Source of the DNA: Candidatus Bathyarchaeota archaeon
Lineage (GTDB): Archaea > Thermoproteota > Bathyarchaeia > TCS64
Assembly: GCA_043826455.1 (NCBI GenBank)
Contig: JBDRQD010000015.1
Location: forward strand, 1-64,000
DNA length: 64,000 nt
Direction: 5' to 3'
Shown: piece after piece, positions 1 through 19,811 of the stretch
Layout: every line of letters begins with the position of its first letter
Position numbering within the stretch: the stretch's first letter is position 1
The notes under the pieces: model-generated
Told to the model about the DNA's origin: nothing
What the model saw: only the letters and a program-made list of their open reading frames with translations
Database searches by the model: none
Made by a program: the position numbers and the translations under genes

Positions 1-142
1 CATCATTAAACATGATACCTCTTGTTATTTACTTATTCTTATTAACTTATCATATGCATGTTATTGTATTAATATTTAGGTATCAATAAACCCATGAGAA
101 ATGTTATATTAATTTTCTCGATACACTATTATATTTTTAGAG

Positions 143-1948
143 ATGACTGAGATGGATGAGTTTTCGCTTCTGATTAAAAACGCAACCATAGTTGATGGCT
201 CCGGAAAACCAGCCTACAAGGGCTCCGTCGGGGTGAAGGAGAACAAAGTGGCGGCGATAGGCGACGTCAAAGGAGACTTCGCGAGGGAGATCGACGCCAA
301 GGGCTTGACCGCTGTCCCCGGATTCATAGACTCCCACAGCCACGGGGACATGGATGTCTTGTTCTTCCCCAAGTGTGAGAGCTACCTGCTCCAAGGAGTG
401 ACCACCATGGTGGCCGGCCAATGCGGCATGTCCCTGGCCCCCATCAAAGACAAGATCACCCTTCCGGGGATCGCTTCGGAGTACCTAGAGGATCTGGAAC
501 CCCACAAGTACTATCCAAAGAGAACGGTCTTGCCCAGGGACGAGGTAAACTCCCTCATGAAGGAGAAGTTCGGGTGGACCATAGACTGGCACAGCATGGA
601 GGACTGGTTCAAGGTCGTAGAGAAGAAGAAGATATCCCTGAACATGGCCACCCTCGTCGGCCACGTAACGGTGCGGCACACAGTAATGCAGGACGACTAT
701 GAGCGACCAGCCACCCAGGATGAGAGAGCCGAGATGGGGGCCCTCATCAAGCAGTCCCTGAAGGAGGGCTGCTACGGCATGTCCGTGGGCTTGGACTATG
801 ACCCGGACACCTTCGCTGATCACGAGGAGCTTGTGGAGCACTGCAAGATGGTCGCAGACCACGGCGGGATATTCGTACCCCACTCCCGGAGGACGGGGAG
901 GAGGCGCAACATAGCCGCAGGCCACAGGCAGCACGACAAGATCGACGGCATATTGGAGGTCATCGACCTGTGCAGGAAGTCAGGCGTCAAGATGAACATC
1001 GCCCACCTGTTCACCGGTTGGAACATCTCGCCCCAGGGCTACCCCAGCATCCTGGAGGAAGCTAACCGCAGGGCCACGCTGATGGTGATAGACGACGCCA
1101 GGAAGGAGGGCCTTGACATCAGCTTCGACCTGATCCCCAGCACCCTCACAGACGAGTTCGGGAGCGCCCAGTACCTGTGCGGCTCCTTCTCGCCCTGGGT
1201 CAGGGAGAAGGGGACCCGGACAGAGTTCGCCAAGTGGCTTAAGCTGGACGAGTACCGGCAGGAGATCAAGGACGCCATCAAGGCGGGTAAATGGTTCATC
1301 CGGGTGAACTATAACCCCAACACCAACCCCAGGTGGGCGGAGAACTACACGATCCTCCAGCACAGTGAGCCAGAGACATTGAACAAGACGATAGCGGTGA
1401 TCGCCGAGGAGAGGGGCAAGGACGCCTTCGACGTCTGGTTCGACCTCATCGTGGAAGACCCGGACGCCCTTTGCGGCCAGACCTTTGTGTACCCCAGCGG
1501 AACGCCCGACCTGAACGCGCCTTACCACAGCATCTTCTTCGAACACCCCCAGAGCTGCATCGGCATCGACACCGGCGTGGACGACTATAAGTACGAGTCC
1601 AAGAAGCCGACCGCGTACCGCCCCATGATGCTGTCCTACTCGGCTTTCCCGGCCTTCTTCGAGAAGTTCGTGAAGAAGGATAAGAAGTTCACCCTGGAGG
1701 AAGCCGTCCACAAGACCTCAACCCAGGCCGCGGTGCGCCACGGCATACAGGGCAGGGGAACCATAACCAGGGGCAGCTACGCCGACATAGTCCTCATGGA
1801 CCTGAACAAGGTGAAGGTCACCGCCACAGCCCTGAAGCCGCGGAACAAGCCCAAGGGAATTGAGTACGTGGTGGTTAACGGGGATGTAGTCGTGGAGAAT
1901 GGCAAGCACAACGGTGCCACACCCGGGAAGGTGCTGAGGAAGAAGTGA
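143..1948 (+). CDS. N-acyl-D-amino-acid deacylase (D-aminoacylase) family amidohydrolase
   Basis: N-terminal 'LLIKNATIVDGSG', PGFIDSHSH metal motif, GVTT...GQCG, C-terminal 'GSYADIV...VVVNG'. Confidence 0.85.
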   Translation: MTEMDEFSLLIKNATIVDGSGKPAYKGSVGVKENKVAAIGDVKGDFAREIDAKGLTAVPGFIDSHSHGDMDVLFFPKCESYLLQGVTTMVAGQCGMSLAPIKDKITLPGIASEYLEDLEPHKYYPKRTVLPRDEVNSLMKEKFGWTIDWHSMEDWFKVVEKKKISLNMATLVGHVTVRHTVMQDDYERPATQDERAEMGALIKQSLKEGCYGMSVGLDYDPDTFADHEELVEHCKMVADHGGIFVPHSRRTGRRRNIAAGHRQHDKIDGILEVIDLCRKSGVKMNIAHLFTGWNISPQGYPSILEEANRRATLMVIDDARKEGLDISFDLIPSTLTDEFGSAQYLCGSFSPWVREKGTRTEFAKWLKLDEYRQEIKDAIKAGKWFIRVNYNPNTNPRWAENYTILQHSEPETLNKTIAVIAEERGKDAFDVWFDLIVEDPDALCGQTFVYPSGTPDLNAPYHSIFFEHPQSCIGIDTGVDDYKYESKKPTAYRPMMLSYSAFPAFFEKFVKKDKKFTLEEAVHKTSTQAAVRHGIQGRGTITRGSYADIVLMDLNKVKVTATALKPRNKPKGIEYVVVNGDVVVENGKHNGATPGKVLRKK

Positions 1949-5720: not shown

Positions 5721-6179
5721 ATGTTTAAAACCATCCTAGCCGCAGTAGACGGCTCAAAACCCAGCCAACACGCCCTCCACCTAGCCGCCCAGCTAGCCAA
5801 ACAACAGGGCGCCCAGCTACACATAGTAACCGTGACCCCCCTCCTACCCGCCATAGCAGTAGACGGCTTCAGCCCAGAGTACCTACCCCAGTACCAGGAA
5901 GACTTGGAAAAAGCCATGCAACAGACCCTAGACAAGGCAGCAGAAGAAACAAGAAAAAACCACCCCAAACTCAAGGTCACCACCCACCTCAAAGAAGGAA
6001 GACCAGCCAAAAAGATCACAGAAACAGCCGCAGAGATAGACGCCGACCTCATAGTACTCGGCAGCAGAGGCACCAGCGGAATCCTCACCTGGGTCCTAGG
6101 CAGCGTCACCCGAGAAGTAGCCGACAGCTGCACCGTCCCCGTCCTCATAGCCAAAGACCAAACCTACTGCCAAGCGTAG
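5721..6179 (+). CDS. Universal stress protein (UspA family)
   Basis: ILAAVDGS start, DLIVLGSRG...LGSV ATP-binding motif, PVLI end. Confidence 0.92.
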   Translation: MFKTILAAVDGSKPSQHALHLAAQLAKQQGAQLHIVTVTPLLPAIAVDGFSPEYLPQYQEDLEKAMQQTLDKAAEETRKNHPKLKVTTHLKEGRPAKKITETAAEIDADLIVLGSRGTSGILTWVLGSVTREVADSCTVPVLIAKDQTYCQA

Positions 6180-6230
6180 CCCCCACCCACAAACAACACC
6201 ACAAATAGGGCCAGCATTTTATCTCAACCA

Positions 6231-6431
6231 ATGCAGCAGCTAACACACCCCACACTAGACGAAAACCACACCCTACGCCAGACAACACAGCTAATGATCG
6301 ACACAGGCACCTACACCATCACCGTCACCCGCCACGGCCACCCAACCGCAAACATTACCATACAGGACATCCTAAACGCCGCCCGAGCAGGAAAAAACAC
6401 CCGAGACACCCGCCTAGCAGACATACTATAA
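6231..6431 (+). CDS. Single, possibly degenerate CBS-domain protein
   Basis: Aligns by eye with the first CBS domain of 8249..8680 (TLRQTTQLMIDTG/TVREAARMMIDFG; ITIQDIL/VTYRDVL). Confidence 0.5.
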   Translation: MQQLTHPTLDENHTLRQTTQLMIDTGTYTITVTRHGHPTANITIQDILNAARAGKNTRDTRLADIL

Positions 6432-6477
6432 AACAAGCTTTATCACCCCAGAAACCAACAAAACCACAGAACAAACC

Positions 6478-6654
6478 ATGACCCCCCTCAAACCCGAGGA
6501 AAAAACAAGGATCACCATGGACCTCACCGACGCCGCCACCCGCATCACCGCCCAAGGCATAAGAGACCAGAACCCAGGCATCACCGAGGAACAAGTCATG
6601 GAAGAGCTAAGGAGACGCATCGCCCAAACTAGAAGACCCAGAAAAGAGGAGTAG
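6478..6654 (+). CDS. Small helical antitoxin-like protein (Rv0078B/MenA1-like), 58 aa, not in ORF track
   Basis: Manual translation MTPLKPEEKTRITMDLTDAATRITAQGIRDQNPGITEEQVMEELRRRIAQTRRPRKEE; directly precedes a nucleotidyltransferase. Confidence 0.65.
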   Translation: MTPLKPEEKTRITMDLTDAATRITAQGIRDQNPGITEEQVMEELRRRIAQTRRPRKEE

Positions 6655-6657
6655 ATT

Positions 6658-7186
6658 CTGGACACCTTCGAAGGGCTAATCAGAAGGCTCATCGCAAGCC
6701 TAAACGCCTCACGCCTAGACTACATGTTCACAGGCGCCGTAGCCGCCAGCTACTACGGAACACCTCGCACAACCATGGACGTGGATATCATCATACAGGC
6801 AACCCAAAAAGACGTAGCCAAACTGGCCGCCGCCCTCAAACACGCAGACATACACCACCAGGAGACCCAGATCAGCGCAGCCATATCCTCAGACTACCGG
6901 ATCCTCTCCCTCCACGACGCCCAAACACCCTACACAGTAGACATAATCCTCTCCAGCGAACCCCTGGAGAAACGAGTCGCCACCATAGCCGACCAACCCA
7001 CCTACATCCAGACACCCGAAGCCCTCATCCTGGCCAAGCTACGCATGATCAAGACCACCGTCCCAAGAGAAAGAGCAGGACGACATCAAAGCCATCCTCA
7101 GAAACACACAGGTAAACCTTAAAAACATCAAGAGAGGGGCGAAGAAAGAAGAAACCCTGCCCATCCTGGAAAACCTACTAAACTAG
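6658..7186 (+). pseudogene. Nucleotidyltransferase toxin-like gene with frameshift near 7078
   Basis: YMFTGAVAASYYGTPRTTMDVD NTase motif, PEALILAKL; plausible C-terminus DDIKAILRNTQVNLKNIKRGAKKEETLPILENLLN* is in the +1 frame; in-frame CTG start at 6658. Confidence 0.65.
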
Positions 7187-7250
7187 CCCGAGACACCGCC
7201 AGAAAAACACCTAATACCCAGCCACCGGGTACAAACCCAGAAAGCTCCTA

Positions 7251-7266
7251 AAAACCCCTTATAAGG
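7251..7266 (+). promoter_or_regulatory. Putative BRE/TATA promoter of tfb
   Basis: AAAACCCCTTATAAGG about 70 nt upstream of the tfb ATG. Confidence 0.45.
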
Positions 7267-7331
7267 ATTGTAGATCAAACCCACAAACACACCAATAAAA
7301 ACCCAGCCACCCCACAACAACCCTGATTCTC

Positions 7332-8252
7332 ATGGCGGCGGTCCTCCAGCGAAGAACATGCGAAGAATGCGGCTCCACCAAACTGGTAACCGACAACGAG
7401 ACCGGCGAGATCATCTGCACCGATTGCGGAGCCGTCGTAGCCGAGTCCCTCATAGACCACGGCCCAGAGTGGAGAGCCTTCGACCTCGACCAGCAGGAGA
7501 AGCTCACACGCGTCGGGGCACCCCTCACCCTCACCATCCACGACAAGGGTCTCAGCACAACCATCAGTTGGCAGAACCAGGACGCCACAGGCCGCAAACT
7601 CACCCCCGAGGAACAGGAGCGGCAGTACAGGCTACGTAAGTGGCAACGCCGCACCAGTAGCAACGACAGCACCCAGCGCAACCTCACCCACGCCCTCAGC
7701 GAGATGAACCGCATAGCCAACAAACTCAACCTACCCAAGAACACCACGGAGACAGCCGCCATGATCTACCGCCGAGCCATCACCAAGCAGCTCATCAGAG
7801 GCCGCACCATCCAGAGCGTAGTAGCCGCCGCCCTCTACATGGCAGCACGCCAGTGCAACGTAATGCGCAGCCTCGAGGACGTAGCCAAGGCCGCCAACAT
7901 CACCCGCAAAGAGGCCGCCCGCAACTACAGGTTCCTCTACAAGGAGCTGAAAACCGATGTACCACCCGTAGATCGGGACAGCCTCATCACCAAGTTCGTC
8001 AGCAAGCTCCGCATCAGCGGACCCACAGAGCAGCTGGCCCGCCGAATACTCGACCAGGCCAACGACCAGAAGCTCACCATAGGCCGAGCACCCGAAGGCA
8101 TAACGGCCGCATGCATCTACATAGCCTGCAAGCTCAACCACGAGGAGCGCACCCAGGGTGAGATAGCCAAGACCGCCCAGATCACAGAGGTCACCATACG
8201 CAACCGGTACAAGGAGCTCATCAAGAACCTGGACTTCGAGGTGCAGCTATGA
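7332..8252 (+). CDS. tfb: Transcription initiation factor IIB (TFB)
   Basis: Zn ribbon CEECG...CTDCG, GPEWRAF, RVGAP, HDKGLST, two cyclin repeats, TEVTIRNRYKEL. Confidence 0.97.
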   Translation: MAAVLQRRTCEECGSTKLVTDNETGEIICTDCGAVVAESLIDHGPEWRAFDLDQQEKLTRVGAPLTLTIHDKGLSTTISWQNQDATGRKLTPEEQERQYRLRKWQRRTSSNDSTQRNLTHALSEMNRIANKLNLPKNTTETAAMIYRRAITKQLIRGRTIQSVVAAALYMAARQCNVMRSLEDVAKAANITRKEAARNYRFLYKELKTDVPPVDRDSLITKFVSKLRISGPTEQLARRILDQANDQKLTIGRAPEGITAACIYIACKLNHEERTQGEIAKTAQITEVTIRNRYKELIKNLDFEVQL

Positions 8253-8857: not shown

Positions 8858-11356
8858 TTGGGCTTAAAAAACGCCGCAGATAGTCCCACGATGAAGGTTA
8901 TCCACATCGACGACGAATCATCCCACCTGCATTTCACCAAGATGTTTCTTGAGATGGCGCACCCCGGCCTCAAGGTGCACTCAGCGTCATCAGTCGAGGA
9001 GCTGAACAATCTTCTGGCGATGGGCGCCGACTGCATAGTATCCGACTACAAGATGCCCAGAGTAAACGGTATCGAGCTCTGCGAATCCATAAAGAAGAAA
9101 GTAGACGTGCCCTTCATACTGTACACTGGCCACGGCAGCGAGTTTGTAGCAGAGAAAGCCTTCGCTGTGGGCGTGGATGACTATATAAGAAAGGAAATGG
9201 ACCCAAGCCATTACAGGGTCCTCTCCAAGAGAATCACTCAGGCAGTTGAGAAGTACCGGTCACAGAAAAGCAACAACCTGTATAAGAAGAGGCTGGAAAC
9301 CCTCCACAGGTACGCCATCAATATATCCTCCGCAATAGAGGTAGACGAGATTGCCTACCTGTCCTTCGAGGCTATAAAGGAGACCCTCGAGTGCAGCTTC
9401 GCCGGGTTTCATCTCCTTAGAGGTAATGAACTTGTGGAACTTTACATCACAGGAGCCACAGTCAACGAACCATACGTGCAGCCTTTAGATGGACCTGGGG
9501 TAACTGTAAGAGCAGTGAAATCGGGCTTGACACAAATTGTACACGACACACGACAGGACGAAGACTACGTCAGCTGGCCCAAAGACCTTGTTCTACTGTC
9601 AGAAGTTGCCGTGCCATTCACCCTTGGTGAGCAAGTCGCAGGAGTGTTGAACGTTGAGAGCGAGCGACAGGACGCTTTCACGAAGGAAGACGTAACACTG
9701 CTCGAGATACTGAGCTCATACATATCATCATCTTTAACAAGGCTACAGCAGGTTGAAACATACCGGGAATCAGAGAGGAGATGGAAGAGCTTTCTTGAGT
9801 CCTCGATGGATGCAGCGTTCGTCATGGTCGGCACCGAGATCGTTTATGCCAATAAAAGAGCTGTAGAACTATTGGGATACCATGACAGATCCGAGTTCAT
9901 TGGCTTGAACTCTCTATTACTAGTTAAATATGAGGATAGAGAGATGGTGCGGTCTAGGATGCTTAGCAGGCAGCGTGGTGAGGATCAGCCAAACCAATAC
10001 GACCTCACGCTCATCGATAGACAGGGAAAGGAGATCGTGGTTGAGACCAATGCCAGCCTCATAGAGTACTACGGGGAACCAGCCTCTCTCTCCTACTGCA
10101 GGGACATCTCGGCTAGGAAGAGATACGAGAAAAAGTTGACGGCTCTACACAAGTCAGCGATCAGACTGGGAAAATCTTACAGTCTGGACGATGTGTGTGA
10201 CGTGATTCTTGACACCATTGAATCTGTTCTAGGTTTCCAGTTCGCAGGCATTGCCATGCACGAGGACGGGTACCTGAAGTATGTTAAAACAAGGGGAGTC
10301 GTTTTCGCTAAAGAGTGGGTTATTCCTGTAACTGCGAAATGCGTCACGGCTCGAGCCTTTAGATCCCGTAAAACTCAAATTATTAGAGACACACGGCTTG
10401 ACCCTGATTACACTAACCCTCCAGTTGACACTGCATCAGATTACACTTCATTATCCGAATTGACATTGCCCATTAACGAGAACGGCAACATTCTAGGGGT
10501 AATTAACATCGAGAGCAAAGACCTAGACGCCTTTACAACATATGACGCTGAGCTCGTGGAGATACTAGCTATGCACTCGGCCTCAGCCATACGACGTATC
10601 CTTGAAAAGAACGAGCTCCAGAAGATCATCGACCAGAAGACCAGGGAGTCTATAGAGTCTGAGAAGCACAAAGCCATAGCAATGATCTCCTCCATGGTGG
10701 CCCACGATATGAGGGGCCCGCTACAGACGATAAAGAACTGCGTATATTTCTTGCAGAAAGACGACGAAGGCTATTCGGCTAAAATCAGCAGCGCAGTGGA
10801 CTACGCCGTCAAGATGCTGGAGGATCTTCAACAGTACACTGACCGCACTCCCCTGAACCAGGCACCCATCAGCCTAAATGCGCTGGTCCTCCAAACGATC
10901 CAAGATATCATCATGCCCATTGCCGTCGATGTGGAGGTTACCCTAGAGGACCTGGATGGGCTCATGCTTGACTACACCAAGATGCGGCGCGTCCTGAACA
11001 ACCTCGTGGCTAACTCCCTGGAAGCAATGCCCCAGGGCGGCTCACTGAGAATAAACGGGTATCTTGACGAAGACATGGTGCGCATAGAGGTAAGCGATAC
11101 AGGGGTCGGGATATCAGAAGACGTGATGAATAAGCTACTGACCGACTTCATCACCACAAAACCTAACGGACACGGCTTGGGGCTTCCCTTCTGTAAGAGA
11201 GTCATCGAGGCTCACGGAGGCAGGATACAAATACAGTCCAAGGTCAACGAGGGCACAGTTGTCACAATGACTATTCCATACGTGCATGAATCCGTTGAAA
11301 ACCCGGAGCCTCATATATACAGCGCACAGTACACAGTGAAAGAGGCTCAGTCTTAA
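8858..11356 (+). CDS. Hybrid sensor histidine kinase REC-GAF-PAS-GAF-HisKA-HATPase
   Basis: HIDDE/SDYKMP/YTG/YIRK receiver; two GAF domains (SEVAVP..GVLNVES; SELTLP..GVINIES); PAS (YANKRA); H-box AHDMRGPL, N-box NLVANS, DTGVG, GHGLGL; start may be ATG 8891. Confidence 0.93.
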   Translation: MGLKNAADSPTMKVIHIDDESSHLHFTKMFLEMAHPGLKVHSASSVEELNNLLAMGADCIVSDYKMPRVNGIELCESIKKKVDVPFILYTGHGSEFVAEKAFAVGVDDYIRKEMDPSHYRVLSKRITQAVEKYRSQKSNNLYKKRLETLHRYAINISSAIEVDEIAYLSFEAIKETLECSFAGFHLLRGNELVELYITGATVNEPYVQPLDGPGVTVRAVKSGLTQIVHDTRQDEDYVSWPKDLVLLSEVAVPFTLGEQVAGVLNVESERQDAFTKEDVTLLEILSSYISSSLTRLQQVETYRESERRWKSFLESSMDAAFVMVGTEIVYANKRAVELLGYHDRSEFIGLNSLLLVKYEDREMVRSRMLSRQRGEDQPNQYDLTLIDRQGKEIVVETNASLIEYYGEPASLSYCRDISARKRYEKKLTALHKSAIRLGKSYSLDDVCDVILDTIESVLGFQFAGIAMHEDGYLKYVKTRGVVFAKEWVIPVTAKCVTARAFRSRKTQIIRDTRLDPDYTNPPVDTASDYTSLSELTLPINENGNILGVINIESKDLDAFTTYDAELVEILAMHSASAIRRILEKNELQKIIDQKTRESIESEKHKAIAMISSMVAHDMRGPLQTIKNCVYFLQKDDEGYSAKISSAVDYAVKMLEDLQQYTDRTPLNQAPISLNALVLQTIQDIIMPIAVDVEVTLEDLDGLMLDYTKMRRVLNNLVANSLEAMPQGGSLRINGYLDEDMVRIEVSDTGVGISEDVMNKLLTDFITTKPNGHGLGLPFCKRVIEAHGGRIQIQSKVNEGTVVTMTIPYVHESVENPEPHIYSAQYTVKEAQS

Positions 11357-12441: not shown

Positions 12442-13002
12442 ATGTATCATTTTAACATAATCTACATATGGATAGAGGCTTTCCATCGCCTCGTGGAAGG
12501 ACCGGCCAACAACACGGGACACCCAGTTCTGGGTAAGGTGAAGAAGATCTGCTTATTCGTCCTTCCGTTCCTAGTGGGCTACATGGTGTTGCAGAGCGCC
12601 CTGCACACCAGTGAGCCCCTGGCGGTGTCCAAGGGCCGCAGCATGGAGCCCACCATCAGGGAGGGGGACGTACTGGTGTTCCGGGGTGTGTCCACCGAGG
12701 AGGTGAAGGTGGGGGATGTCCTCCTCTTCCAGGTGCCCGACGAGATGGTGGGGCTTCTGCCTGAGCGCATCACCCACCGGGTCGTCGAGATTAGGAAGGA
12801 GGCCGGTGTCACCTACTTTAGGACCAAGGGGGACAACGCGCCCCTGGATACCTTCGAGATCCCCGCCGATAAGGTGGTGGGGCTTAACATCGCCGTCATC
12901 CCGTACGTGGGGACCCCCGTCCTGTTCGCCCAGTCCCCCATCGGCATGGGGGCCATAATGGTGCTCATCGTGGCGTCTGAGAGGAGGGGGGTCGGGAGAT
13001 AG
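12442..13002 (+). CDS. Signal peptidase I, SEC11/SipW (S26B) type
   Basis: GRSMEPT (catalytic Ser), ITHRVV (His), FRTKGDN, N- and C-terminal TM; true start may be GTG 12538. Confidence 0.9.
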   Translation: MYHFNIIYIWIEAFHRLVEGPANNTGHPVLGKVKKICLFVLPFLVGYMVLQSALHTSEPLAVSKGRSMEPTIREGDVLVFRGVSTEEVKVGDVLLFQVPDEMVGLLPERITHRVVEIRKEAGVTYFRTKGDNAPLDTFEIPADKVVGLNIAVIPYVGTPVLFAQSPIGMGAIMVLIVASERRGVGR

Positions 13003-13673
13003 ACATCCTCCGCGTTGAGAAGCCGGATCTGGAGGATCTCCGCTCCTTCGTCAAGTACATCAAGGAGAAGGGGATCAAGATGGAGGAGATCAACGAGCTG
13101 CTGTACTACTTCGCGGAAAAGTACGGCTACGATCCCCTGGACTATAAGATCAACCTCATGACGGGTATCGTGGTGCCGAAGAAGCAGGAAAGCGCCGTGA
13201 ACTCGGGGGTGAGGGAGCCATCCCATGTACAATTGGAGAAGACCCATTCGAGTGGTCAAAGTCGGCCCCCTGCCGTGAATGAGGAGCAGGCGCCCCCAGA
13301 TAGGAAGAGGGTGGAAATAGAGGACAGCGTGGAGGGGCTGAGAACCTACAGGATATACGCCTACTCGCAGCAGGAGACAGCCGTTGGTCTAGTTCCCTCG
13401 GATCCGGGAGACTATCTCCGCGAGTTGGACGAGTGGATCACCTGTAATGGCCTGTCCTACTTGGAGGCCCGCCGGCTCATAGCATCCCTGGAGCTGAACA
13501 AGCGTATGGGGGAGCTGTACCCGCACCTGGATAGGAGTAGCGGCGAAGGGGTCCTATCGGAGTTCGATGAGTGGATACTGCTCCGGCACCTGAGCTACTT
13601 CAGGGTTAGGATGATGATCGCCGAGCTGGGGCAGGAGGAGGAGCGTGGCCGGCTGGAAGCCGTCGCGGCGTAG
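12999..13673 (+). CDS. Hypothetical cytoplasmic protein with three ~26-aa helical repeats
   Basis: Frame open from 12981; ATA 12999 overlaps the peptidase stop after SD GGAGG (ORF track start 13080); repeats LRELDEWITCNGLSYLEARRLIASL / LSEFDEWILLRHLSYFRVRMMIAEL. Confidence 0.6.
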   Translation: MDILRVEKPDLEDLRSFVKYIKEKGIKMEEINELLYYFAEKYGYDPLDYKINLMTGIVVPKKQESAVNSGVREPSHVQLEKTHSSGQSRPPAVNEEQAPPDRKRVEIEDSVEGLRTYRIYAYSQQETAVGLVPSDPGDYLRELDEWITCNGLSYLEARRLIASLELNKRMGELYPHLDRSSGEGVLSEFDEWILLRHLSYFRVRMMIAELGQEEERGRLEAVAA

Positions 13674-13680
13674 ATTGGAA

Positions 13681-14115
13681 ATGAGCGAAGAAAAGGTGAT
13701 GGGGGGCAGGGCCCTCAAGGTGGTGTTCATGGCCGCCTTACTGTTGGCGCCCATTTACTCGCTGTACCTGTTGGTGAGCACCTGGAGTAGGCCTGTGCCC
13801 AGAGTTGATTTTCTGGTCTACAAGGCCAAATATAACGCGACGGATGAGATGGTCACGGCCTGGATCGACCACAACGGGACCCGGACAGCGTACGGTGTTC
13901 GGGTTTTCGTGGAGTGGGGGACTGAGTGGACCGTGGATCGGGTGGGCCCTGAGGAGTTCATCAAGATATCGTATAAAAAGCCGCTTTCTGCTCAGGATTT
14001 TCCGTACTGGGAGGAGGTTTTCATGGAGTGGAAGTACCTGGATGAGGAAAATAAGCTAGTTGACGGCGATAATATACTATTTATTATACTCACGAGAAAT
14101 GATATAGTCTATTAA
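13681..14115 (+). CDS. Membrane-anchored small beta-rich (Ig/CARDB-like) protein
   Basis: N-terminal TM then 'VTAWIDHNGTRTAYGVRVFVE' beta pattern; NAT/NGT sequons. Confidence 0.6.
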   Translation: MSEEKVMGGRALKVVFMAALLLAPIYSLYLLVSTWSRPVPRVDFLVYKAKYNATDEMVTAWIDHNGTRTAYGVRVFVEWGTEWTVDRVGPEEFIKISYKKPLSAQDFPYWEEVFMEWKYLDEENKLVDGDNILFIILTRNDIVY

Positions 14116-14204
14116 TATTAAATAAAAACTAATGATGTTGCTAATATGTATTTACTAATCCATAGTCTTTATGAACAAAATTTTGTGTCATTTGTCTGAG
14201 TACT

Positions 14205-14792
14205 ATGAAGAAAAGAGGTAAAATAGGCGAGTTCTTCAACAGGAAAAGCATAAAACTAGGTCTTCTACTGATCTCAGCTCTTCTCATAGCCACCACCAGC
14301 ACCAACGTATACTATGGCCTACTGTCGGAAAGCTCAGTGGGCATCGTCGAGGCCAAGGTTCACTTCACGGCTGGAGACGACTCCACGGCGGCCGGGTACA
14401 TCCCAGGCGCCAACGAGACCTACTGTCGGCTGTCTCTGAACGCGTACGCTAACGTGACCCTGTACTATGAGCAGGCCGTCAACATCACCAACACCGACAC
14501 CGCTGCACACGACATCAGGTTGAGGCACGTGACCATCAGCCCCACAAGTGGAGATGTCAGCGTGGGTAACTTCACCCAGATTGACTTCAAGATCGTGGAT
14601 AAGGCTGGGGTCGTGCAGAGAACCCTGACGTACACTACCACTGGAGACACATGGAACGCCCCTGGGGCCCCAACGGCCTACATAACGCTGCCCGCCTCGA
14701 CTGAGTGGACCGTTCAGATTGAGACAAGGGCTGCGCCGGGTGCGAATAAAGTGTCCTGTTGGATCGAGATCGCCATAGACGTAGACGAGTAG
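14205..14792 (+). CDS. TasA/AbpA-like secreted fibre (bundling pilus) subunit
   Basis: Basic N-region plus hydrophobic signal, mature start near NVYYG, ~160-aa all-beta domain with 'AVNITNTD...DIRL', no C-terminal anchor, encoded near a SipW-type peptidase. Confidence 0.7.
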   Translation: MKKRGKIGEFFNRKSIKLGLLLISALLIATTSTNVYYGLLSESSVGIVEAKVHFTAGDDSTAAGYIPGANETYCRLSLNAYANVTLYYEQAVNITNTDTAAHDIRLRHVTISPTSGDVSVGNFTQIDFKIVDKAGVVQRTLTYTTTGDTWNAPGAPTAYITLPASTEWTVQIETRAAPGANKVSCWIEIAIDVDE

Positions 14793-14838
14793 TCTACACC
14801 CGAACCCTAAGGCGAAACCGAGACGGAGATAGTGGGCA

Positions 14839-15510
14839 ATGGGAGTATACGCGCCGGAGCTTCTGATACTTTATGCATTGGACATGTTTCTGGTCCTAAG
14901 CATAGTTACTTGTATGTTTGACTCCCATTTCCCTGTCGCTGTACCCTACTTCTTCCAGCTTCTGAGCATTGCCGGTACCGGCCACATGTACGTGAGCCGG
15001 TTCTACGAAGGCATGTTCACTGTTGAGAGCCGCTTCCTTTACAGCGTGTTCTACTTAGGGGCCTTCATGACCTCATCTTTCGCGGTTTCAGCCTATTTAT
15101 TCTTAGCAAAGAACAGGGCCAAGGGGCTCATGTTCTTAGGTGGCTTCAGCCTCCCGTCGACGCTCTTCGGCGTCTACATAGTGACGGTGTTCAGGAACGA
15201 GTTGCCCATACCCTGGTTCCTCAGCTCAGGCTTCTTCGCAAGCTGGCTGCCTGTGCTGCTGTTGCTCAGCTTCACCATCCTGTTCGCCGGGATGTCCATG
15301 TTCTTTGATCCGGGCTCCGCAAAGCTACCGTCCATGAGGAAGCTCATCCAAGGGCTACTTCAGAGGCGGGTGGGCGAAGAGGTGGAAGAAGAGGAAGAGG
15401 AGGAGGAAGAAGCCTACTATGAAGCTCTCGACGAGTTCAACCCCGTCGACTTTGTCCACGTCACCCGTCTGGAGGAGCACGATGAGGTTGACTATGACAG
15501 GAGTCGCTGA
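14839..15510 (+). CDS. Multi-pass membrane protein with poly-Glu cytoplasmic tail
   Basis: About 5 hydrophobic segments, then an E-rich tail (15376-15411). Confidence 0.7.
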   Translation: MGVYAPELLILYALDMFLVLSIVTCMFDSHFPVAVPYFFQLLSIAGTGHMYVSRFYEGMFTVESRFLYSVFYLGAFMTSSFAVSAYLFLAKNRAKGLMFLGGFSLPSTLFGVYIVTVFRNELPIPWFLSSGFFASWLPVLLLLSFTILFAGMSMFFDPGSAKLPSMRKLIQGLLQRRVGEEVEEEEEEEEEAYYEALDEFNPVDFVHVTRLEEHDEVDYDRSR

Positions 15511-15525
15511 CTGGGGTGAGGCCGT

Positions 15526-18500
15526 CTGAGGGCTTCGAAGAGAGTCAAATTTATTTTACTTGCGTTGATCCTGGGGGCCTTATCCCAGGCTCACGCCCTG
15601 GTATATTATGGGTTTAACTCCGGGTCGAAGGCGTCTATTACTGGCTCGGATGTTATCTTGGAGCAGGGGACCTCGGGCACCAGTGTTGTATACACGAATG
15701 CGACGAGCGCGTACTCTGAGGTGGATAGTCACTCCACCACCTTCTATCCGAATGACTACAACATCACTCAGGGCGTGTACGTGTCTGGGGCCACGCCCGA
15801 CGATGTCATGGGCATCGATAATGACTACTTCATTGTGGACGCCACCGGGTATACCACTAGTACAGCGGTGTACTATCCCTCAATCTACAATCTGTTAGGG
15901 GGGACCACTCTCTTCTCCGGCTCTATCAGCGATGTGAGCAGCGATAACGGTGTCTACATGTCCTTCAAGAGCTACCTGAGCGACAACCCGAACATAGAGG
16001 ACTACGTCGACAACGATACCTCAGACGTCGACTCCACCGCGGACAAGGGATTTAGCAGCAACTTTACCGACCAGCAGGTCGGGCCCGACGCATCGTACGA
16101 TGAGTTGAGGGAACAGTACTTTGGGGGGCTGGTGGAGGACTACGTTGACCTTGATACGAGTGACGTGGACTCTTCAAGTGACGTAGGTAACCTCGTCGAC
16201 TTCTCCAACATGAAGAGCCTAAGTTTGGGTTATTCCACATTATCGGAGGCAGTAAGCCCGGTTAAAAACGTGAGCAGCGCTGAGAGTTGGAGTGGCACAG
16301 GCGCTAACTCGCACAGCTTCCAGTATAATCTTCAGAGTGGGGCAGGTAATAACAGGCTCGTCGTGGTAGGTGTTACTTGGGAGGACGCCGAGGCCTCGGC
16401 TTCTGCCAGTGTCACCTTCGACGGCGTACCAATGATCAATGTAGCGTCTGTCACCATCGGTTCCGGCTATTCGGCTTATGCTGGTATGTGGTACATGAAC
16501 GAGTCTCTGCTTCCCTCAACCACAGGAAACAAGTGGGTCAGTGTCAGCGTCTCCCAGGCGATAACCCGAGAGATATACGTTACAGTGGCAGAGTACACCG
16601 GCGTCGCCCAGGAAGCCCCGGACGATTATGCTACGCATGCAAACACCGCCAGTGGTAACACGGCTGTTACATTGACGGTCGCTGACAGTGGCTCCATAGT
16701 TGTCGCGGTGGGTGTGCAAGGCGGCACCAACTCCTGGGCCAACACGAATAATCTGGACAATATCCAAGACGCCCTGCTCACAAGCTTCGGAGGGGCGTTA
16801 GGCAACCACGAGAATGCGGCTTCCGGTGACATTACAGTTGGCTGGAACAGTCTTGACACAAGAGAAGGAATGGTTGGGGCTGTTTGGTCGGCTTTCACGA
16901 ATTATCAGCTCGACCAGGAGATCCAGTGGACTAATCCTGTTAACTATCTGCAGGGAGCTGAGCTCGTGGTAATGACTGGTGCCCATACAGGCAACGAGGA
17001 CCTCACAGTCCAGTACTGGAGCATCGGCTCCAGCCAGTGGGTGACTCTGGGGAACTTGACAGCGAACTCATGGAACAATTATACAATCGGTTCGTATCTC
17101 ACAGGCTTGGACTTCACCATCAGGTTCAAGGGTACCATCGAGACCGGCGATGTCGTCCAGGACACTTGGCAGATTGACGCCGCTTTCATCCGGCTGCTTG
17201 GAAGTGGGAGCAGAGAGGATTATGTGGACAACGATGCCAGTGATATGGACTCTTCACCGGACAAGGGGACTCATTCCAGCTTCGCATCACAGCAAGCTGG
17301 CCCAGACGCGGTCTACGATACCTTAACAGAAAGCGGGAAAATAAACACAACGTTGATCGACGCTGAGAGCTTCGAGAGCACGTGGCCTCCGACGGGGTGG
17401 AGCGCAACGGGGAACTGGAACCGGGAAGCCAACGAGGCTTACCAGGGGACCTATTCGGCGGACTTCGACGGGAGCTCTTCAGGCAACCTAGTTACACCCA
17501 GCTTCGACTGCTCTGGAGCATCCTCAATATATGTAAGCTTCTGGTTTAGGGACGACGACCTCGATGACGACGACTTTCTTCTCCAGTACTGGGATGGGGG
17601 CCAGTGGGACACAATACAGGACATGAATGGCTACTCGGAGGACACCTGGCACCACTGGGAGCAGAACGTCACCGACAGCCAGTACTTCATCAACGGCTTC
17701 CAGGTCCGATTTGTGGGTAACACCGTATTCTGGGGTGAGACCATCTATGTCGACGTCGTGACAATAAAGAAGGAGGTGAAAAGCTGCGAACTGGACCTAG
17801 AAGTCCAGTGGACAAACGTAGATCACCTCCTACCCTACGAGGAACTATGCATATATGCCGGGACAACGGGCGCCGAGGACCTTAAGGTTGAGGTCTGGAA
17901 CACGACCACGTCCAGCTGGGAAACGCTGCTAAGCGACCTGACAGCCAACAGCTGGAACAACGTATCTATCTCCGGGTGGCTCACAGGCAACAACTTCACC
18001 ATCAGGTACATAGGCGGCACCGAAACAGGTGACTCCACCCAGGACCAGTGGCAGATCGATGTAGCTCTGATAAAGGTCTGGGCCAACGAGACGGCCCAGT
18101 ACACCCTCGACTTTGAGTACCAGTGGACAGGCGCCGACTTCTGGGAGCAGAACGAGGAGCTCTGCATATACGGGGGAACCATGGGTGCCGAGGACATCCT
18201 CGTGGATGTTTGGTACGGCGACGCCTGGAACAACGTGCTCTCGGACCTCTCCCCAGGGTGGAACAACGTATCCATAACGTCATACTTGGACTCTTCAAGC
18301 CTTACCATCAGGCTGAGAGGAGGCTCAGAAGCCTCCGATGCGATCAGAGACGCGTGGCTGATAGATGCCTCGCTAATCCACGTGTGGGGCCCAGAGTACA
18401 CCGCGGAAGTCGAGCTACTGGGGACAAGCAACCTCTACGAGTGGTCACAGGTCGAGTGGACCACTGACAGCGCCTGGACCAACGAGTCAGTCAGGGTCGA

Positions 18501-19404
18501 GCTCCAGCTATACGACTACAACTCCAGTTCCTACCCAACCGCAGGCGACGGTTACACGAGTTACACAGTTGAGACGGCCGACTTAGACGAGACTAAAAAT
18601 CAGGTGATAACCAGCAGCCCTGAGAACTTCAGAAACGCCACCGGATGGTGGAAGATGAAGTTTACCGGCAAAATGTACACCCAGTTCGACCTAAACCTGG
18701 ACTACCTGGCCTTAAACACGACCTATTACTCTGAGTACACGGCTGAGACGGAGTTCATATTCACCGACATAACCGACAACCAGAGCCCCTACCTGAACTT
18801 CACCGTCGTGACCCACAACAGCGTGGACGGAGCCACGGTCACCATACAGGTCTGGAACTACACCTCATCAAGCTTCCCAACAAGCGGCCAGGGCTACCTA
18901 TCATACGTGTCCACCGGCTTCAACAACACCAGCCACCTCAACGTCACCCTGAACCCCGGCACCCTCCTCAGCGGCACCTACGCCAGGATAAAGGTAACCT
19001 CCGCCCTGGCGACCACCCTCAGCTACCAGCAGCAGACAAACTTCGTCAGGCTCCTGCAGGACGAGTCCCAGAGGCTCCACGACTACGCGTTGAGGATTAC
19101 GAACACGGGCGCGGACCCCTACACCGTGAGGCTGAACCACCTGGGCGACGCGGACATCGGCAGGCTCATCAACTGCACCATATACCTCAGCTCGGGGGGC
19201 ACCCAGTTACAGGTCCTAGACGGCATCGTAACCGTTTCTCAGGGCGGCTGGGTCGGCCTGGGCGGCTTCAGCAGCCTGGACATCCTCATAAGCGCCTCAT
19301 CTATCACGCGTGATCCTAAGAGCATGATAAGCGCCGAGGTGGAGGCCCTGAAGACAGGAACAAGCACCTACACCAAGCTACCAATACAGCTAGTCATATA
19401 CTAG
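15526..19404 (+). CDS. Giant pilin-paralog surface glycoprotein/adhesin with nested repeat domains
   Basis: CTG start after SD GGGGTGAG gives the full signal peptide MRASKRVKFILLALILGALSQAHA-LVYYG (ORF track start 15565); both ends resemble 14205; repeated EDYVD, QW...WNN...W.ID and EYTAE segments; many N-x-S/T sequons. Confidence 0.8.
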   Translation: MRASKRVKFILLALILGALSQAHALVYYGFNSGSKASITGSDVILEQGTSGTSVVYTNATSAYSEVDSHSTTFYPNDYNITQGVYVSGATPDDVMGIDNDYFIVDATGYTTSTAVYYPSIYNLLGGTTLFSGSISDVSSDNGVYMSFKSYLSDNPNIEDYVDNDTSDVDSTADKGFSSNFTDQQVGPDASYDELREQYFGGLVEDYVDLDTSDVDSSSDVGNLVDFSNMKSLSLGYSTLSEAVSPVKNVSSAESWSGTGANSHSFQYNLQSGAGNNRLVVVGVTWEDAEASASASVTFDGVPMINVASVTIGSGYSAYAGMWYMNESLLPSTTGNKWVSVSVSQAITREIYVTVAEYTGVAQEAPDDYATHANTASGNTAVTLTVADSGSIVVAVGVQGGTNSWANTNNLDNIQDALLTSFGGALGNHENAASGDITVGWNSLDTREGMVGAVWSAFTNYQLDQEIQWTNPVNYLQGAELVVMTGAHTGNEDLTVQYWSIGSSQWVTLGNLTANSWNNYTIGSYLTGLDFTIRFKGTIETGDVVQDTWQIDAAFIRLLGSGSREDYVDNDASDMDSSPDKGTHSSFASQQAGPDAVYDTLTESGKINTTLIDAESFESTWPPTGWSATGNWNREANEAYQGTYSADFDGSSSGNLVTPSFDCSGASSIYVSFWFRDDDLDDDDFLLQYWDGGQWDTIQDMNGYSEDTWHHWEQNVTDSQYFINGFQVRFVGNTVFWGETIYVDVVTIKKEVKSCELDLEVQWTNVDHLLPYEELCIYAGTTGAEDLKVEVWNTTTSSWETLLSDLTANSWNNVSISGWLTGNNFTIRYIGGTETGDSTQDQWQIDVALIKVWANETAQYTLDFEYQWTGADFWEQNEELCIYGGTMGAEDILVDVWYGDAWNNVLSDLSPGWNNVSITSYLDSSSLTIRLRGGSEASDAIRDAWLIDASLIHVWGPEYTAEVELLGTSNLYEWSQVEWTTDSAWTNESVRVELQLYDYNSSSYPTAGDGYTSYTVETADLDETKNQVITSSPENFRNATGWWKMKFTGKMYTQFDLNLDYLALNTTYYSEYTAETEFIFTDITDNQSPYLNFTVVTHNSVDGATVTIQVWNYTSSSFPTSGQGYLSYVSTGFNNTSHLNVTLNPGTLLSGTYARIKVTSALATTLSYQQQTNFVRLLQDESQRLHDYALRITNTGADPYTVRLNHLGDADIGRLINCTIYLSSGGTQLQVLDGIVTVSQGGWVGLGGFSSLDILISASSITRDPKSMISAEVEALKTGTSTYTKLPIQLVIY

Positions 19405-19811
19405 GGTAGTAACGAGTCCAGGATTTCTATAATAACGATACATACACCACACCAGCGCCAGAGCCCCAGAGGGGGGAGGGGGGTAGAGCAAGATAGACCG
19501 GAAACGGACCCCCCACGCTAAAAGGAGCCCGGGAACCGGTCCGATGCCGCATGAATCTACGCAAAAACGCTGTTCATACTATACAAAAATGCGGCACATT
19601 CATCACATCAAGCACAGGGCAACGAGGGTTGATGTGTAAAAAAACATAGGGGGGGTATCACCTAATGGCGAATTTTTCCATTATTATAAGGGTGCTCGAC
19701 CTTGAAGAGGTAACATAAAAAAATGACCCGGCGTCTAAGATTGCCCCCACAGAAACAGAGGACGCCACCACCGCGTCTAACCTTTTAAACCATCAACCCA
19801 ATGTCAACTCC

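Follow-up and report, generated by a model that had tools for sequence, protein, structure and literature searches.

The frame at 15526..19404 on the forward strand of the window (64,000 nucleotides of Candidatus Bathyarchaeota archaeon DNA, contig JBDRQD010000015.1) encodes what is, at a probability of roughly 75%, a secreted cap or tip subunit of a strand-donation pilus resembling archaeal bundling pili and threads, one that carries a recursively nested, two-headed insert in its pilin fold. The base of this large protein would be one copy of the fold of a small pilin, with, as in the major subunit, an N-terminal tail donatable to a neighbouring subunit; the loop between positions equivalent to 84 and 90 of the small subunit would take an insert of 1,113 residues. 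Within the insert, a sandwich A would contain a sandwich B, which would contain a jelly roll C, and C would contain two C-type rolls in tandem, one bearing a head D and the other a head E. Because the chain would cross each host domain twice, outward and back, the predicted result is a two-pass stalk that holds both heads off the fibre. The features are collected in Table 1.

Table 1. Operon genes and assigned segments of the large protein in the window
Feature	Position	Strand	Basis or remark
First conserved operon gene, 150 aa	11975..12427	+	one N-terminal hydrophobic segment, residues 13-44
Archaeal-type signal peptidase I (SipW/Sec11-like), dedicated	12442..13002	+	NCBIfam TIGR02228 sigpep_I_arch
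Conserved 197-aa protein	13080..13673	+	homolog in 8/9 related loci
156-aa protein, N-terminal hydrophobic segment at 18-47	13645..14115	+	homolog in 3/9 loci (L002, L003, L004)
Small subunit, 195 aa: signal peptide, N-terminal tail VYYG..., beta-sandwich head	14205..14792	+	AF2, VIA, Foldseek
223-aa polytopic membrane protein, acidic C-terminal tail	14839..15510	+	several hydrophobic segments
Signal peptide of large protein	15526..15597	+	LRASKRVKF...SQAHA; hydrophobic segment residues 7-28
pN, pilin N-half: tail VYYGF... and first strands	15598..15741	+	hhalign to small-subunit family
A1, N-half of sandwich A	15742..15870	+	profile 'a' match; weak likeness to B1
B1, N-half of sandwich B	15871..15996	+	co-folds with B2 in model
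C1, N-half of outer host jelly roll C	15997..16134	+	profile 'c' match; repeat scores
C1', N-half of jelly roll C'	16135..16257	+	repeat scores, half-domain profiles
Head D, ~215-aa all-beta domain	16258..16902	+	AF2 model
C2', C-half of C'	16903..17214	+	repeat scores, half-domain profiles
C1'', N-half of C''	17215..17349	+	repeat scores, half-domain profiles
Head E, complete MAM/CBM-like jelly roll	17350..17784	+	structure matches of model
C2'', C-half of C''	17785..18099	+	repeat scores, half-domain profiles
C2, C-half of outer jelly roll C	18100..18393	+	repeat scores, half-domain profiles
B2, C-half of sandwich B	18394..18732	+	113 residues; model 885-997
A2, C-half of sandwich A	18733..19080	+	homologous to B2, z 14.2
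pC, pilin C-half and stop codon	19081..19404	+	hhalign to small-subunit family; no membrane anchor

Order and proposed pairing of the half-domains

An earlier note on this DNA had read the order of repeated segments in the large protein as matched brackets. The motifs that it quoted are all in place when residues are numbered from 15526, and most of its repeats lie far above chance by Smith-Waterman score against 200 shuffles. The C N-halves score 137 (C1/C1'', z 21.5), 75 (C1/C1', z 10.0) and 75 (C1'/C1'', z 11.4), the C C-halves 249 (C2'/C2'', z 32.3), 247 (C2''/C2, z 31.4) and 160 (C2'/C2, z 21.3), and the pair B2/A2 scores 104; in each case 0/200 shuffles score as high. The claimed likeness of A1 to B1 is weak (score 40, z 3.2, 1/200 shuffles as high), and no sequence similarity of A to C was found. 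Head E, which had been taken for a unique domain, proves to be related to the C repeats, resembling C2' with z 4.4. Only one way of reading the half-domain order is well nested, namely pilin[A[B[C[C'[D] C''[E]]]]]. Other, independent evidence agrees with it, so that the bracket reading is well supported; from it we infer the pairings and contacts C1-C2, C1'-C2', C1''-C2'' and A1-A2.

Relatives of the protein follow the same rule. Half-domain profiles (a and c for N-halves, A and C for C-halves) were applied to 57 full-length relatives having both pN and pC, with the inner tokens shuffled to generate the expectation: the order is well nested in 51, against 11.4 expected, with equal counts of a and A in 53/57 and of c and C in 54/57. 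Five of the six non-nested relatives are explained by an extra insert that splits the host halves or by a tip that weakly matches the C profile. The rule-abiding relatives present 8 distinct nested architectures; those seen among relatives run from the simple pN c C pC through pN a a c c X C C A A pC to the branched pN c c X C c Y C C c Z C pC, and include the mirror orders c x6 X C x6 and a c a X A C A. Many relatives have Laminin_G_3 heads. The earlier note had suggested looking for homologs that nest to a different depth or have their tips swapped, and such homologs exist; depth, branching and heads vary through gain or loss of matched half-pairs.

Structure prediction bears most directly on sandwich B. 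The AF2 model of A1..A2 has a mean pLDDT of 79.9 and a pTM of 0.44. In it B1 (model residues 44-85, pLDDT 84-88) and B2, ~800 residues apart, make one compact sandwich, and single-domain PDB chains span the two with 124-143 residues aligned at rmsd 2.5-3.1 A (range 40-44..994-995): 9eui_D (Z 14.0, rmsd 2.5, 143 aligned, range 40..995), 2j22_A (125/137 aligned, 41..995), 2yc4_B (124/131, 42..994) and 1gui_A (127/155, 44..994). B2 by itself has 113 residues, fewer than these alignments cover, and the long-range B1-B2 pairing of the earlier note is borne out in the model. A1 (model 1-31) is modeled at pLDDT ~40 and A2 at 47-75. The pTM is such that relative domain placement, and hence the Y shape, draws no support from the model; the geometry of the stalk is presumed from the nesting.

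For roll C the argument is one of profiles. The C profile matches the family of head E with a probability of 94% (E 1.4e-7; C 31-98 on E columns 80-150), and by this alignment the C C-half covers the final two-thirds of a full MAM/CBM-like roll and would be incomplete alone. The ~45 N-terminal residues of the complete roll that are left over equal the length of c, and the 45-residue c N-half would fill the missing part. It could instead be held that the protein is a linear string of beads, the a and c segments being linkers or calcium-binding motifs ahead of A and C, with no co-folding of distant halves. The c segments are indeed short, acidic and DxD-rich, and profile comparison detects no similarity between c and the N-terminal part of E. 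A linear arrangement, however, predicts neither the equal half counts nor the mirror orders, and it sits poorly with a compact B1+B2 domain, with a C that is an incomplete roll when alone and with a pN and pC that jointly cover one small-subunit fold (below); we consider it very improbable.

The heads differ in what they match. Head D (pLDDT 85-94) has 0 matches in Pfam, PDB sequences and the Atlas, and its domain recurs in 38 distinct homolog segments. Head E (model 536-679) aligns near end-to-end with MAM/CBM rolls (Z 12-13.2, rmsd ~3, 133-141 aligned), among them the meprin MAM domain 4gwm_B (Z 13.2, rmsd 3.1, 139 aligned) and CBM61 2xom_A (Z 12.5, rmsd 3.0, 136/145 aligned). The window's own head E has no Pfam MAM or CBM match; a family member (P0103) matches Pfam MAM at E 1.5e-5, below cutoff. 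Its MAM/CBM-like fold makes head E probably glycan- or protein-binding, and both heads would be ligand-binding.

The pilin-like base and its operon

The small subunit is well modeled (pLDDT 91.3, pTM 0.75), and its closest structural relatives by VIA are 7pnb_A (Z 13.1, rmsd 3.3, 152/183 aligned) and 7ueg_A (Z 12.8, rmsd 2.8, 140/180 aligned), the next match falling to Z 8.7; Foldseek finds the same two chains (7ueg_A, E 1.1e-6; 7pnb_A, E 3.4e-6). On the strength of the model it is probably a major pilin of the ABP/thread type. It has 72 representative homologs, nearly all of ~185 aa; neither the subunit nor its 46-member alignment matches a Pfam family (TasA/Peptidase_M73 and DUF1102 included) or a PDB sequence.

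That a pilin fold is split between the ends of the large protein, as the earlier note proposed, is upheld by hhalign: the small-subunit family matches pN with a probability of 79.9% (E 1.7e-6, small 35-84 on pN 1-46) and pC with 90.6% (E 1.6e-7, small 90-197 on pC 1-97), the two mapping colinearly, and the controls a, c, C and A all stay below 3%. The pilin-C motif by which the split had been recognized is weak in pairwise comparison with the small subunit (score 49, z 3.6, 3/500 shuffles as high) and is confirmed by the profile-profile comparison. In other genomes, large ORFs that adjoin small-subunit genes are matched by the small-subunit profile in their N part (query 3-90) or in their C part (query 77-183).

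The neighbouring genes form a conserved set. The signal peptidase matches TIGR02228 at E 3.1e-28 (98.6 bits, cutoff 51.85) and a SipW model at E 2.4e-15, below that model's cutoff, with weak Pfam S24/S26 matches; it is present in 6/9 related loci, and the remaining three contigs begin downstream of it. The first operon gene, whose product matches no Pfam or NCBIfam family, has a homolog upstream of the peptidase in 6/9 loci (L001, L002, L005, L006, L007, L008). The 197-aa product has no family match (Pfam, NCBIfam) and no hydrophobic segment. The small-subunit gene is followed by the membrane-protein gene in 9/9 loci and then by the large gene in 7/9; in one (L003) an unrelated convergent gene follows the membrane gene and the large gene is absent. 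The membrane protein, with no family match in Pfam or NCBIfam, is a possible anchor or assembly platform.

Export and proposed position in the filament

The large-protein frame opens after a stop at 15517-15519 and runs through 1,292 codons with 0 internal stops. With its signal peptide and 26 N-x-S/T sequons, the product is probably secreted and heavily N-glycosylated. The codon at 15526 is CTG, unusual as a start; five of five orthologs inspected (L001, L002, L004, L005, L006) have ATG at this site, and the earliest ATG, GTG or TTG of the frame is the TTG at 15565. Translation from there would shorten the signal peptide and leave it without a charged N-region, which makes expression and export of this copy uncertain. 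It might accordingly be argued that the copy is silent or decaying after loss of its ATG, and that the architecture is the family's rather than that of a working protein here. The frame is uninterrupted, though; Logan contigs of X1, a run that is probably of the source sample, match 14712-19498 with 0 differences; the large and small-subunit genes are each the sole copy in a 97.7%-complete genome; a relative (P0007) is also called from the internal Leu codon, suggesting a common non-ATG state; and CTG may itself serve as start. Decay is on balance unlikely.

A hydrophobicity scan finds no hydrophobic segment or membrane anchor at the C end of the large protein, which is why it would most likely sit at a filament end as cap or tip. 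The assembly of a filament and this tip position are part of the proposal, as is strand donation by the small and large subunits, which is put forward by analogy. Subunits that have both a pilin-like domain and a donor tail are discussed as caps or tips in the literature: Saci_0405 (PMC9715654) and AbpB/TapA (PMC9245690), as well as TafC, a proposed tip whose laminin-G-like domain faces outward (PMC11821415). The nested protein might instead be a cell-proximal nucleator or anchor (TapA/TafF-like), or a stand-alone surface lectin held by the membrane protein, and several observations lend this some substance: thread/ABP filaments could have either polarity, and Saci_0405 is discussed as both proximal and distal cap (PMC9715654); a role in nucleation or anchoring has been suggested for TapA and AbpB (PMC9245690); and a gene for the polytopic membrane protein sits immediately upstream (9/9 loci). 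The lack of any membrane-spanning segment or other anchor beyond the signal peptide, the usual build of distal adhesins (long stalk, lectin-like heads) and the outward-pointing domain of TafC lean the other way, none of them decisively. A non-distal placement is the most likely of the competing accounts: improbable, yet somewhat ahead of decay.

Comparison with known systems

The fold of the small subunit is that of the AbpA bundling pili of Pyrobaculum calidifontis (7UEG) and the Saci_0406 threads of Sulfolobus acidocaldarius (7PNB), and, as in them, a Sec-type signal and then an N-terminal tail precede a beta-sandwich head; membership does not extend to the sequence level (no PF12389 match). 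A larger second operon gene with a pilin-like domain and like tail also has its counterpart, as proposed for Saci_0405 (PMC9715654). The cap or tip candidate here has its insert nested inside the pilin fold rather than appended domains. The operon here carries a signal peptidase I, which PMC9245690 describes as absent near abpA, and the hosts of ABP and threads are hyperthermophilic Thermoproteales or Sulfolobales, whereas the present lineage is mesophilic Bathyarchaeia.

Haloarchaeal tafi, as described in the available parts of PMC11821415 and PMC12337348, comprise TafA/E pilins, a TafC tip and the signal peptidase I TafD. Like the related Sec-dependent DUF1102 clusters, they have an in-cluster signal peptidase I, as here, and small strand-donation subunits, as proposed here, and their larger proposed tip joins a pilin-like domain to a lectin-like head, as in the large protein. 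They are considered a third group, separate from the ABP/thread pilins that the present subunit resembles (PMC12337348, in part); the system here has no twin-arginine motif, its neighbours give no DUF5305 (TafG) or DUF1102 Pfam match, and TafC, as far as described, has two domains in series rather than nested. The one trace of DUF1102 was a lead from the Atlas (0.93).

The MAM/CBM rolls (meprin MAM 4GWM, TmCBM61 2XOM, CBM16, CBM22) share the fold of head E, to which the C host module is homologous; the C modules here are insert-split hosts and do not serve as terminal binding domains. For the nesting itself the earlier note's "very unusual" is an overstatement: the family is large, and nested tip adhesins and recursive branched insertion are already known. 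In RrgA, the sortase-pilus tip adhesin of Streptococcus pneumoniae, D3 lies within D2 and D2/D3 within D1 (PMC5333627, in part), the hosts being built of N- and C-terminal segments with the chain running out and back, as here. SI3 of the cyanobacterial RNA polymerase beta' subunit is a six-level recursive insertion of sandwich-barrel hybrid motifs with bifurcating nodes (PMC13114784, in part): a small beta domain type is inserted recursively in its own copies, and single hosts have more than one insert, again as here. SI3 is, on that description, a cytoplasmic enzyme module of another fold, neither an adhesin nor furnished with variable heads; RrgA is bacterial and sortase-linked, with isopeptide bonds and unrelated folds, and has three unbranched levels where the large protein has five, a bifurcation and self-similar host modules.

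The large gene and its internal repeats

The open frame of the large gene extends on the + strand from a stop at 15517-15519 to 19404, and the residues of its product are numbered here, as in the earlier note, from 15526 (1,292 codons). The first usual start in this frame is TTG 15565; codon 15526 is CTG in the window (LRAS...) vs. ATG in orthologs (MRAS...; the five inspected are those of the related loci L001, L002, L004, L005 and L006). A start at TTG 15565 leaves the signal peptide without a charged N-region, and one of the listed relatives, P0007, is likewise called from an internal position matching 15565. Logan contigs of the probable source sample agree with the window sequence of the gene, and translation may begin at CTG 15526, or at TTG 15565 with a truncated signal. 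The protein holds 26 N-x-S/T sequons; no hydrophobic segment follows its signal peptide, and its C terminus (...KLPIQLVIY) bears neither a sorting motif (LPXTG) nor an anchor, the host being an archaeon. Pfam and NCBIfam searches return nothing above threshold (a match to CIS_spike_tip, E 0.039, lies below threshold and is disregarded). A search of 5.8 billion proteins yields 7,999 scored candidates, 157 of them at E <= 1e-3, of which the best 120 are used here as relatives; the best of them are hypothetical proteins, and the named ones come mostly from Bathyarchaeota/Bathyarchaeia MAGs.

The earlier note had read the segment order as a set of matched brackets, pilin[A[B[C[C'[D] C''[E]]]]], in which a pilin fold is split by nested insertions and two heads, D and E, are carried on a branched stalk (1 and 2 mark the N- and C-half of each domain). 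The motifs quoted for that reading all lie where it placed them. Scored by Smith-Waterman alignment against 200 shuffles, the three C N-halves are mutually similar (z 10.0 to 21.5), as are the three C C-halves (z 21.3 to 32.3) and the pair A2/B2 (z 14.2), with 0 of 200 shuffles reaching the scores in each case. The similarity of A1 to B1 is weak (z 3.2, a score reached by 1 of 200 shuffles), and C2' also resembles head E (z 4.4). Profile-profile comparisons of A with C, of a with c (the N-halves of the A/B-type sandwich and of the C-type jelly roll), of c with E, and of A or C with the pilin C-half find no relation.

The pilin base, the enclosing sandwich and the stalk rolls

The small subunit encoded nearby, a protein of 195 aa, has 72 representative homologs, almost all of ~185 aa. 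Its head is predicted to be a beta-sandwich (a jelly-roll variant) with the fold of AbpA (7UEG) and Saci_0406 (7PNB): the model, built on an alignment of 46 homologs (pLDDT 91.3, pTM 0.75), superimposes on the Sulfolobus thread subunit 7pnb_A with Z 13.1 (rmsd 3.3, 152/183 aligned) and on the Pyrobaculum bundling pilin 7ueg_A with Z 12.8 (rmsd 2.8, 140/180 aligned), the next row standing at Z 8.7 and the cannula subunit 9h8b at Z 7.8. Foldseek places 7ueg_A and 7pnb_A as its top two, at E 1.1e-6 and 3.4e-6. Tail residues 35-51 are unstructured in the monomer model, and the 7pnb_A alignment begins at residue 34. Searched at E up to 1, PF12389 (TasA/Peptidase_M73) matches neither the small subunit nor any of the 46 aligned members; profile-profile methods are reported to be necessary even for AbpA to give a TasA-family match (PMC9245690).

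That the ends of the large protein are the two halves of such a pilin, as the earlier note proposed, is borne out by profile alignment (hhalign): the small-subunit family matches the pilin N-half, pN, at 79.9% (small-subunit 35-84 on pN 1-46) and the C-half, pC, at 90.6% (90-197 on pC 1-97), and four other half-domain profiles used as controls stay below 3%. The matches run colinearly and adjoin at a single loop; pN and pC would thus make up a single small-subunit-like fold, with the 1,113-residue insert falling between the positions of small-subunit residues 84 and 90. Ahead of VYYG in both proteins, and across the family, lie a charged N-region, a hydrophobic segment and a small-residue site. 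In 301 sampled genomes of the class, large ORFs next to small-subunit genes are likewise matched by the small-subunit profile, either in an N part (query 3-90) or in a C part (query 77-183).

The insert was folded as the piece A1..A2 with AlphaFold2 from an alignment of 35 sequences (mean pLDDT 79.9, pTM 0.44; pLDDT is <50 over the first 31 residues, in A1, 47-75 in A2 and mostly 80-94 elsewhere), and domain pairing was read from the structural aligner's aligned ranges on this model.

Coordinates of features in the window, in related loci and on the A1..A2 model, with the structural alignments to the model
Feature	Coordinates	Z	rmsd (A)	Aligned
Skewed stretch	window 6001-8000			
Hybrid sensor kinase gene	window 8858-11356			
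Metatranscriptome contigs	window 12646-15618			
Small-subunit gene	window 14205-14792 (+)			
Large gene	window 15526..19404 (+)			
Folded piece A1..A2, 1,113 residues	window 15742-19080			
B1	model 44-85			
Head E	model 536-679			
B2, 113 residues	model 885-997			
9eui_D	model 40..995	14.0	2.5	143
9euf_H	model 40..995	12.7	2.5	138
2j22_A	model 41..995	10.4	2.9	125/137
2yc4_B	model 42..994	10.8	3.0	124/131
1gui_A	model 44..994	9.9	3.1	127/155
Convergent gene in L003	L003 2395-3411 (-)			
Large-gene frames in L008	L008 6799-8586 and 8459-11626			

All five alignments begin at B1. Because compact single-domain chains span both B1 and B2, the model predicts one sandwich formed from halves 800 residues apart, in agreement with the pairing of B1 with B2 in the earlier note. 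Everything from C1 to C2 lies inside B, so the chain must come back to where it started. By fold match on the model, head E is a complete MAM/CBM-like jelly roll (Z 13.2 with meprin MAM, 4gwm_B; Z 12.5 with CBM61, 2xom_A, 136/145 aligned); no Pfam MAM or CBM profile matches the window's own head E. The best Atlas score of head D, 0.84, is too low for an assignment, and a 99.4% match between the D family and c was rejected as an artefact because the envelope coordinates took in flanking c. Sequence searches of the PDB with D, E, the small subunit and its family profile, and the C profile return nothing meaningful.

The case for the stalk rolls is built differently. The C profile matches the E family with 94% probability (E 1.4e-7), C 31-98 aligning on E columns 80-150; C would thus be the last two-thirds of a complete roll of ~145 residues. 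The N-terminal part that C is missing, ~45 residues, has the length of c, and the c segments are modeled as two or three strands (pLDDT ~75-89), with no similarity between c and the N-terminal part of E detectable by profile-profile comparison. The pairing of c with C is argued from the bracket grammar, from enclosure by B and from homology to E, which together make it probable. More generally, grammar and profile matches suggest that the host domains C, C', C'' and A, as well as the pilin base, are each made of two distant segments. No single-domain row spans a c/C pair among the structural matches listed, a list filled by E and B. Rows that cover several domains fit c'+C' and c''+C'' rolls but are not interpretable (3cqo_A, 242 aligned, rmsd 8.7, range 128..780; reelin fragments likewise span 129-132..880-882). 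Two-chain complex prediction of C2 with C1 scores 0.00 in both runs, made with an uncertain partner fold and no controls, and counts neither for nor against the pairing. Mean-field direct-coupling analysis of 282 nested c-C pairs (effective number 147) gives no usable contact signal; its top inter-segment couplings are gap-driven end columns, and the intra-C scores look artefactual.

Bracket order and possible portability of the stalk

Six half-domain profiles (pN, a, c, C, A and pC, lower and upper case denoting N- and C-halves), built from window segments and iterated on the 120 listed relatives, turn each protein into a token string in which X, Y and Z stand for heads. Both pN and pC are found in 57 proteins, a set that includes the window protein; P0001, a call of the same window gene with its start placed further in, is left out. 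Within this set the bracket order is general: 51 of the 57 are well nested vs. 11.4 expected from shuffled inner tokens, and among the matches listed the counts of a and A agree in 53 of 57 and those of c and C in 54 of 57. Matched halves are gained and lost together among the relatives. Eight of the 12 distinct token strings are nested. Among the matches listed, the simplest, pN c C pC, occurs in 9 proteins, pN c c X C c Y C C pC in 22, the window's own string in 9, pN a a c c X C C A A pC in 5 and the three-headed pN c c X C c Y C C c Z C pC in 3. The relatives with other nesting depths and swapped tips for which the earlier note proposed to look are thus present, as read from token strings and Pfam heads among the listed relatives: laminin-G-like, F5/8 type C and MAM-like heads and folds without assignment are exchanged, and nesting reaches six layers.

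The order a c a X A C A occurs in P0099 and P0114, and six copies of c, a 141-residue head and six copies of C in P0024, P0027 and P0030 (~2000 aa), all five being proteins without pilin ends. The P0024 head matches F5/8 type C at E 4.4e-13, and 790-860 N-terminal residues of these three long proteins carry no assignment. Mirror orders of this kind are not predicted by a linear repeat model. Six of the 57 proteins depart from the grammar. In P0010, P0016 and P0018, the extra A is a single A-half split by a further insert of 314-326 residues that contains Laminin_G_3 (and also DUF2341 in P0016), which points to a second insertion site in the A sandwich, beside that used in the window protein. 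In P0035, one C-half is split by 137 residues; the tip of P0048 gives a weak, 15-bit match to the C profile; and P0007, in which tokens are absent between residues 102 and 480, is an exception without explanation.

The stalk also occurs on other bases. P0088 (1018 aa) combines a c c X C C cassette with an N-terminus matching the archaeal type IV pilin domain PF07790 (E 1.2e-9), so that the nested stalk module is not tied to a strand-donation pilin base. P0040, P0058 and P0102, without pilin ends, have an a a c X C A A (or a c ...) cassette followed by ~230-340 C-terminal residues matching DUF835/DUF7504, and may represent a different, membrane-linked use of the same stalk. Bases among the relatives accordingly comprise strand-donation pilins, the type IV pilin N-terminus of P0088, PKD arrays and DUF835/DUF7504-ended proteins.

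The broadest reading is that the c/C roll (45 + 100 residues) and the a/A sandwich constitute a portable, self-nesting two-pass stalk module, copies of which, inserted into one another's loop side by side or nested, yield branched multi-headed Bathyarchaeia adhesins of programmable length on different bases; we place its probability slightly below even, at about 0.45. If it is true, extracellular proteins would here be put together by a combinatorial grammar to which no described adhesins offer a counterpart, and the module could be a natural protein-engineering scaffold, a use for which the Jo-In pair of RrgA is a precedent. The family, with dozens of architectures built to a single bracket rule, is also a clean natural experiment in recursive domain insertion that bears on the folding and evolution of discontinuous domains, and a caution to gene callers and domain annotators: read linearly, such proteins resemble orphan repeats.

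The locus and known systems

The operon runs p150, signal peptidase I (TIGR02228, E 3.1e-28, 98.6 bits vs. a cutoff of 51.85), p197, p156, small subunit, polytopic membrane protein, large protein; Pfam matches none of the seven proteins except the peptidase. In nine loci whose small subunits are closely related to that of the window, the membrane gene follows the small-subunit gene in all nine and the large gene comes next in seven. The L007 contig stops inside the membrane gene. In L003, the membrane gene is followed by a convergent, sugar-phosphate nucleotidyltransferase-like gene with no large adhesin gene there; the small subunit can thus occur without an adjoining large protein. Heads vary between loci, that of L009 being single. 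The large gene of L008 is divided between two frames that overlap (pN a X a c c / X C c X C C A A pC), either through a frameshift or because of faulty assembly. A single small subunit and a single C-bearing gene are encoded in the window's genome (2.95 Mb, 97.7% complete, 7.2% contamination); across the class, 42 of the 301 genomes sampled carry the small subunit (30 of 151 of high quality; 8 of 31 of the same genus).

Immediately before the pilus operon, and on its strand, is a hybrid sensor kinase gene (receiver, GAF, PAS, GAF, HATPase_c), whose product possibly regulates the operon. Farther upstream, a 2-kb stretch with GC skew -0.28 and AT skew +0.48 (within ~+/-0.16 and +/-0.25 elsewhere) overlaps a 132-aa ORF without a family match and the start of a TFIIB gene. 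As for expression, none of the listed holders of the stretch is recorded as RNA. Metatranscriptome contigs from libraries X6 and X7, of the same study as the probable source, lie on the genes for the peptidase, the small subunit and the membrane protein and on the opening bases of the large gene, with peak word depth (~50) on the small-subunit gene; being only 90-97% identical, they derive from relatives, and DNA carry-over is possible in such libraries. The lack of X6/X7 cover over the rest of the large gene is no evidence of its silence.

By analogy, the large protein would be exported, cut by the operon's signal peptidase and joined through its pilin base and tail to one end of a small-subunit fibre, where heads D and E would be presented on the two-pass stalk. 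The analogues drawn on are the candidate thread cap Saci_0405 (PMC9715654), AbpB/TapA (PMC9245690), and the tafi tip TafC with its outward laminin-G-like domain, together with the peptidase TafD (PMC11821415; PMC12337348). The locus gives Bathyarchaeia a candidate strand-donation pilus, a signal peptidase dedicated to it and a two-headed tip that can be exchanged, which bears on attachment to particles, polymers and partner cells. Bathyarchaeia are among the most abundant archaea of sediments and groundwater, and are almost uncultured. Archaeal strand-donation pili have been known since 2022; to our knowledge, this type has been solved only in hyperthermophilic Thermoproteota.

A dedicated signal peptidase I is shared with tafi-type clusters (TafA-G). 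Unlike those clusters, the operon proteins have no Pfam match to DUF5305 (TafG) or DUF1102 (the latter arising only as an Atlas lead), and unlike the Tat-signal subunits of tafi, the small subunit and the large protein show no visible RR motif in their signal peptides. The literature searched, subscription journals and supplements apart (the supplements of PMC9245690 and PMC12337348 list TasA-like/TafE-like homologs and may include Bathyarchaeia), contains no description of the large-protein family. The view, put forward in the earlier note, that recursive, branched insertion is very unusual compared with beads-on-a-string adhesins is too strong in the light of two precedents: in the RrgA tip adhesin, D3 lies within D2 and D2/D3 within D1 (PMC5333627), and SI3 of cyanobacterial RNA polymerase is a recursive, bifurcating insertion of up to six levels (PMC13114784). 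The large protein resembles RrgA-type sortase-pilus adhesins in design only. Undescribed, as far as the literature searched shows, is the combination: an ABP/thread-type locus in Bathyarchaeia with its own signal peptidase, a tip candidate consisting of a pilin fold with a five-level, branched, self-similar stalk, and a large family in which this stalk varies under a strict bracket rule.
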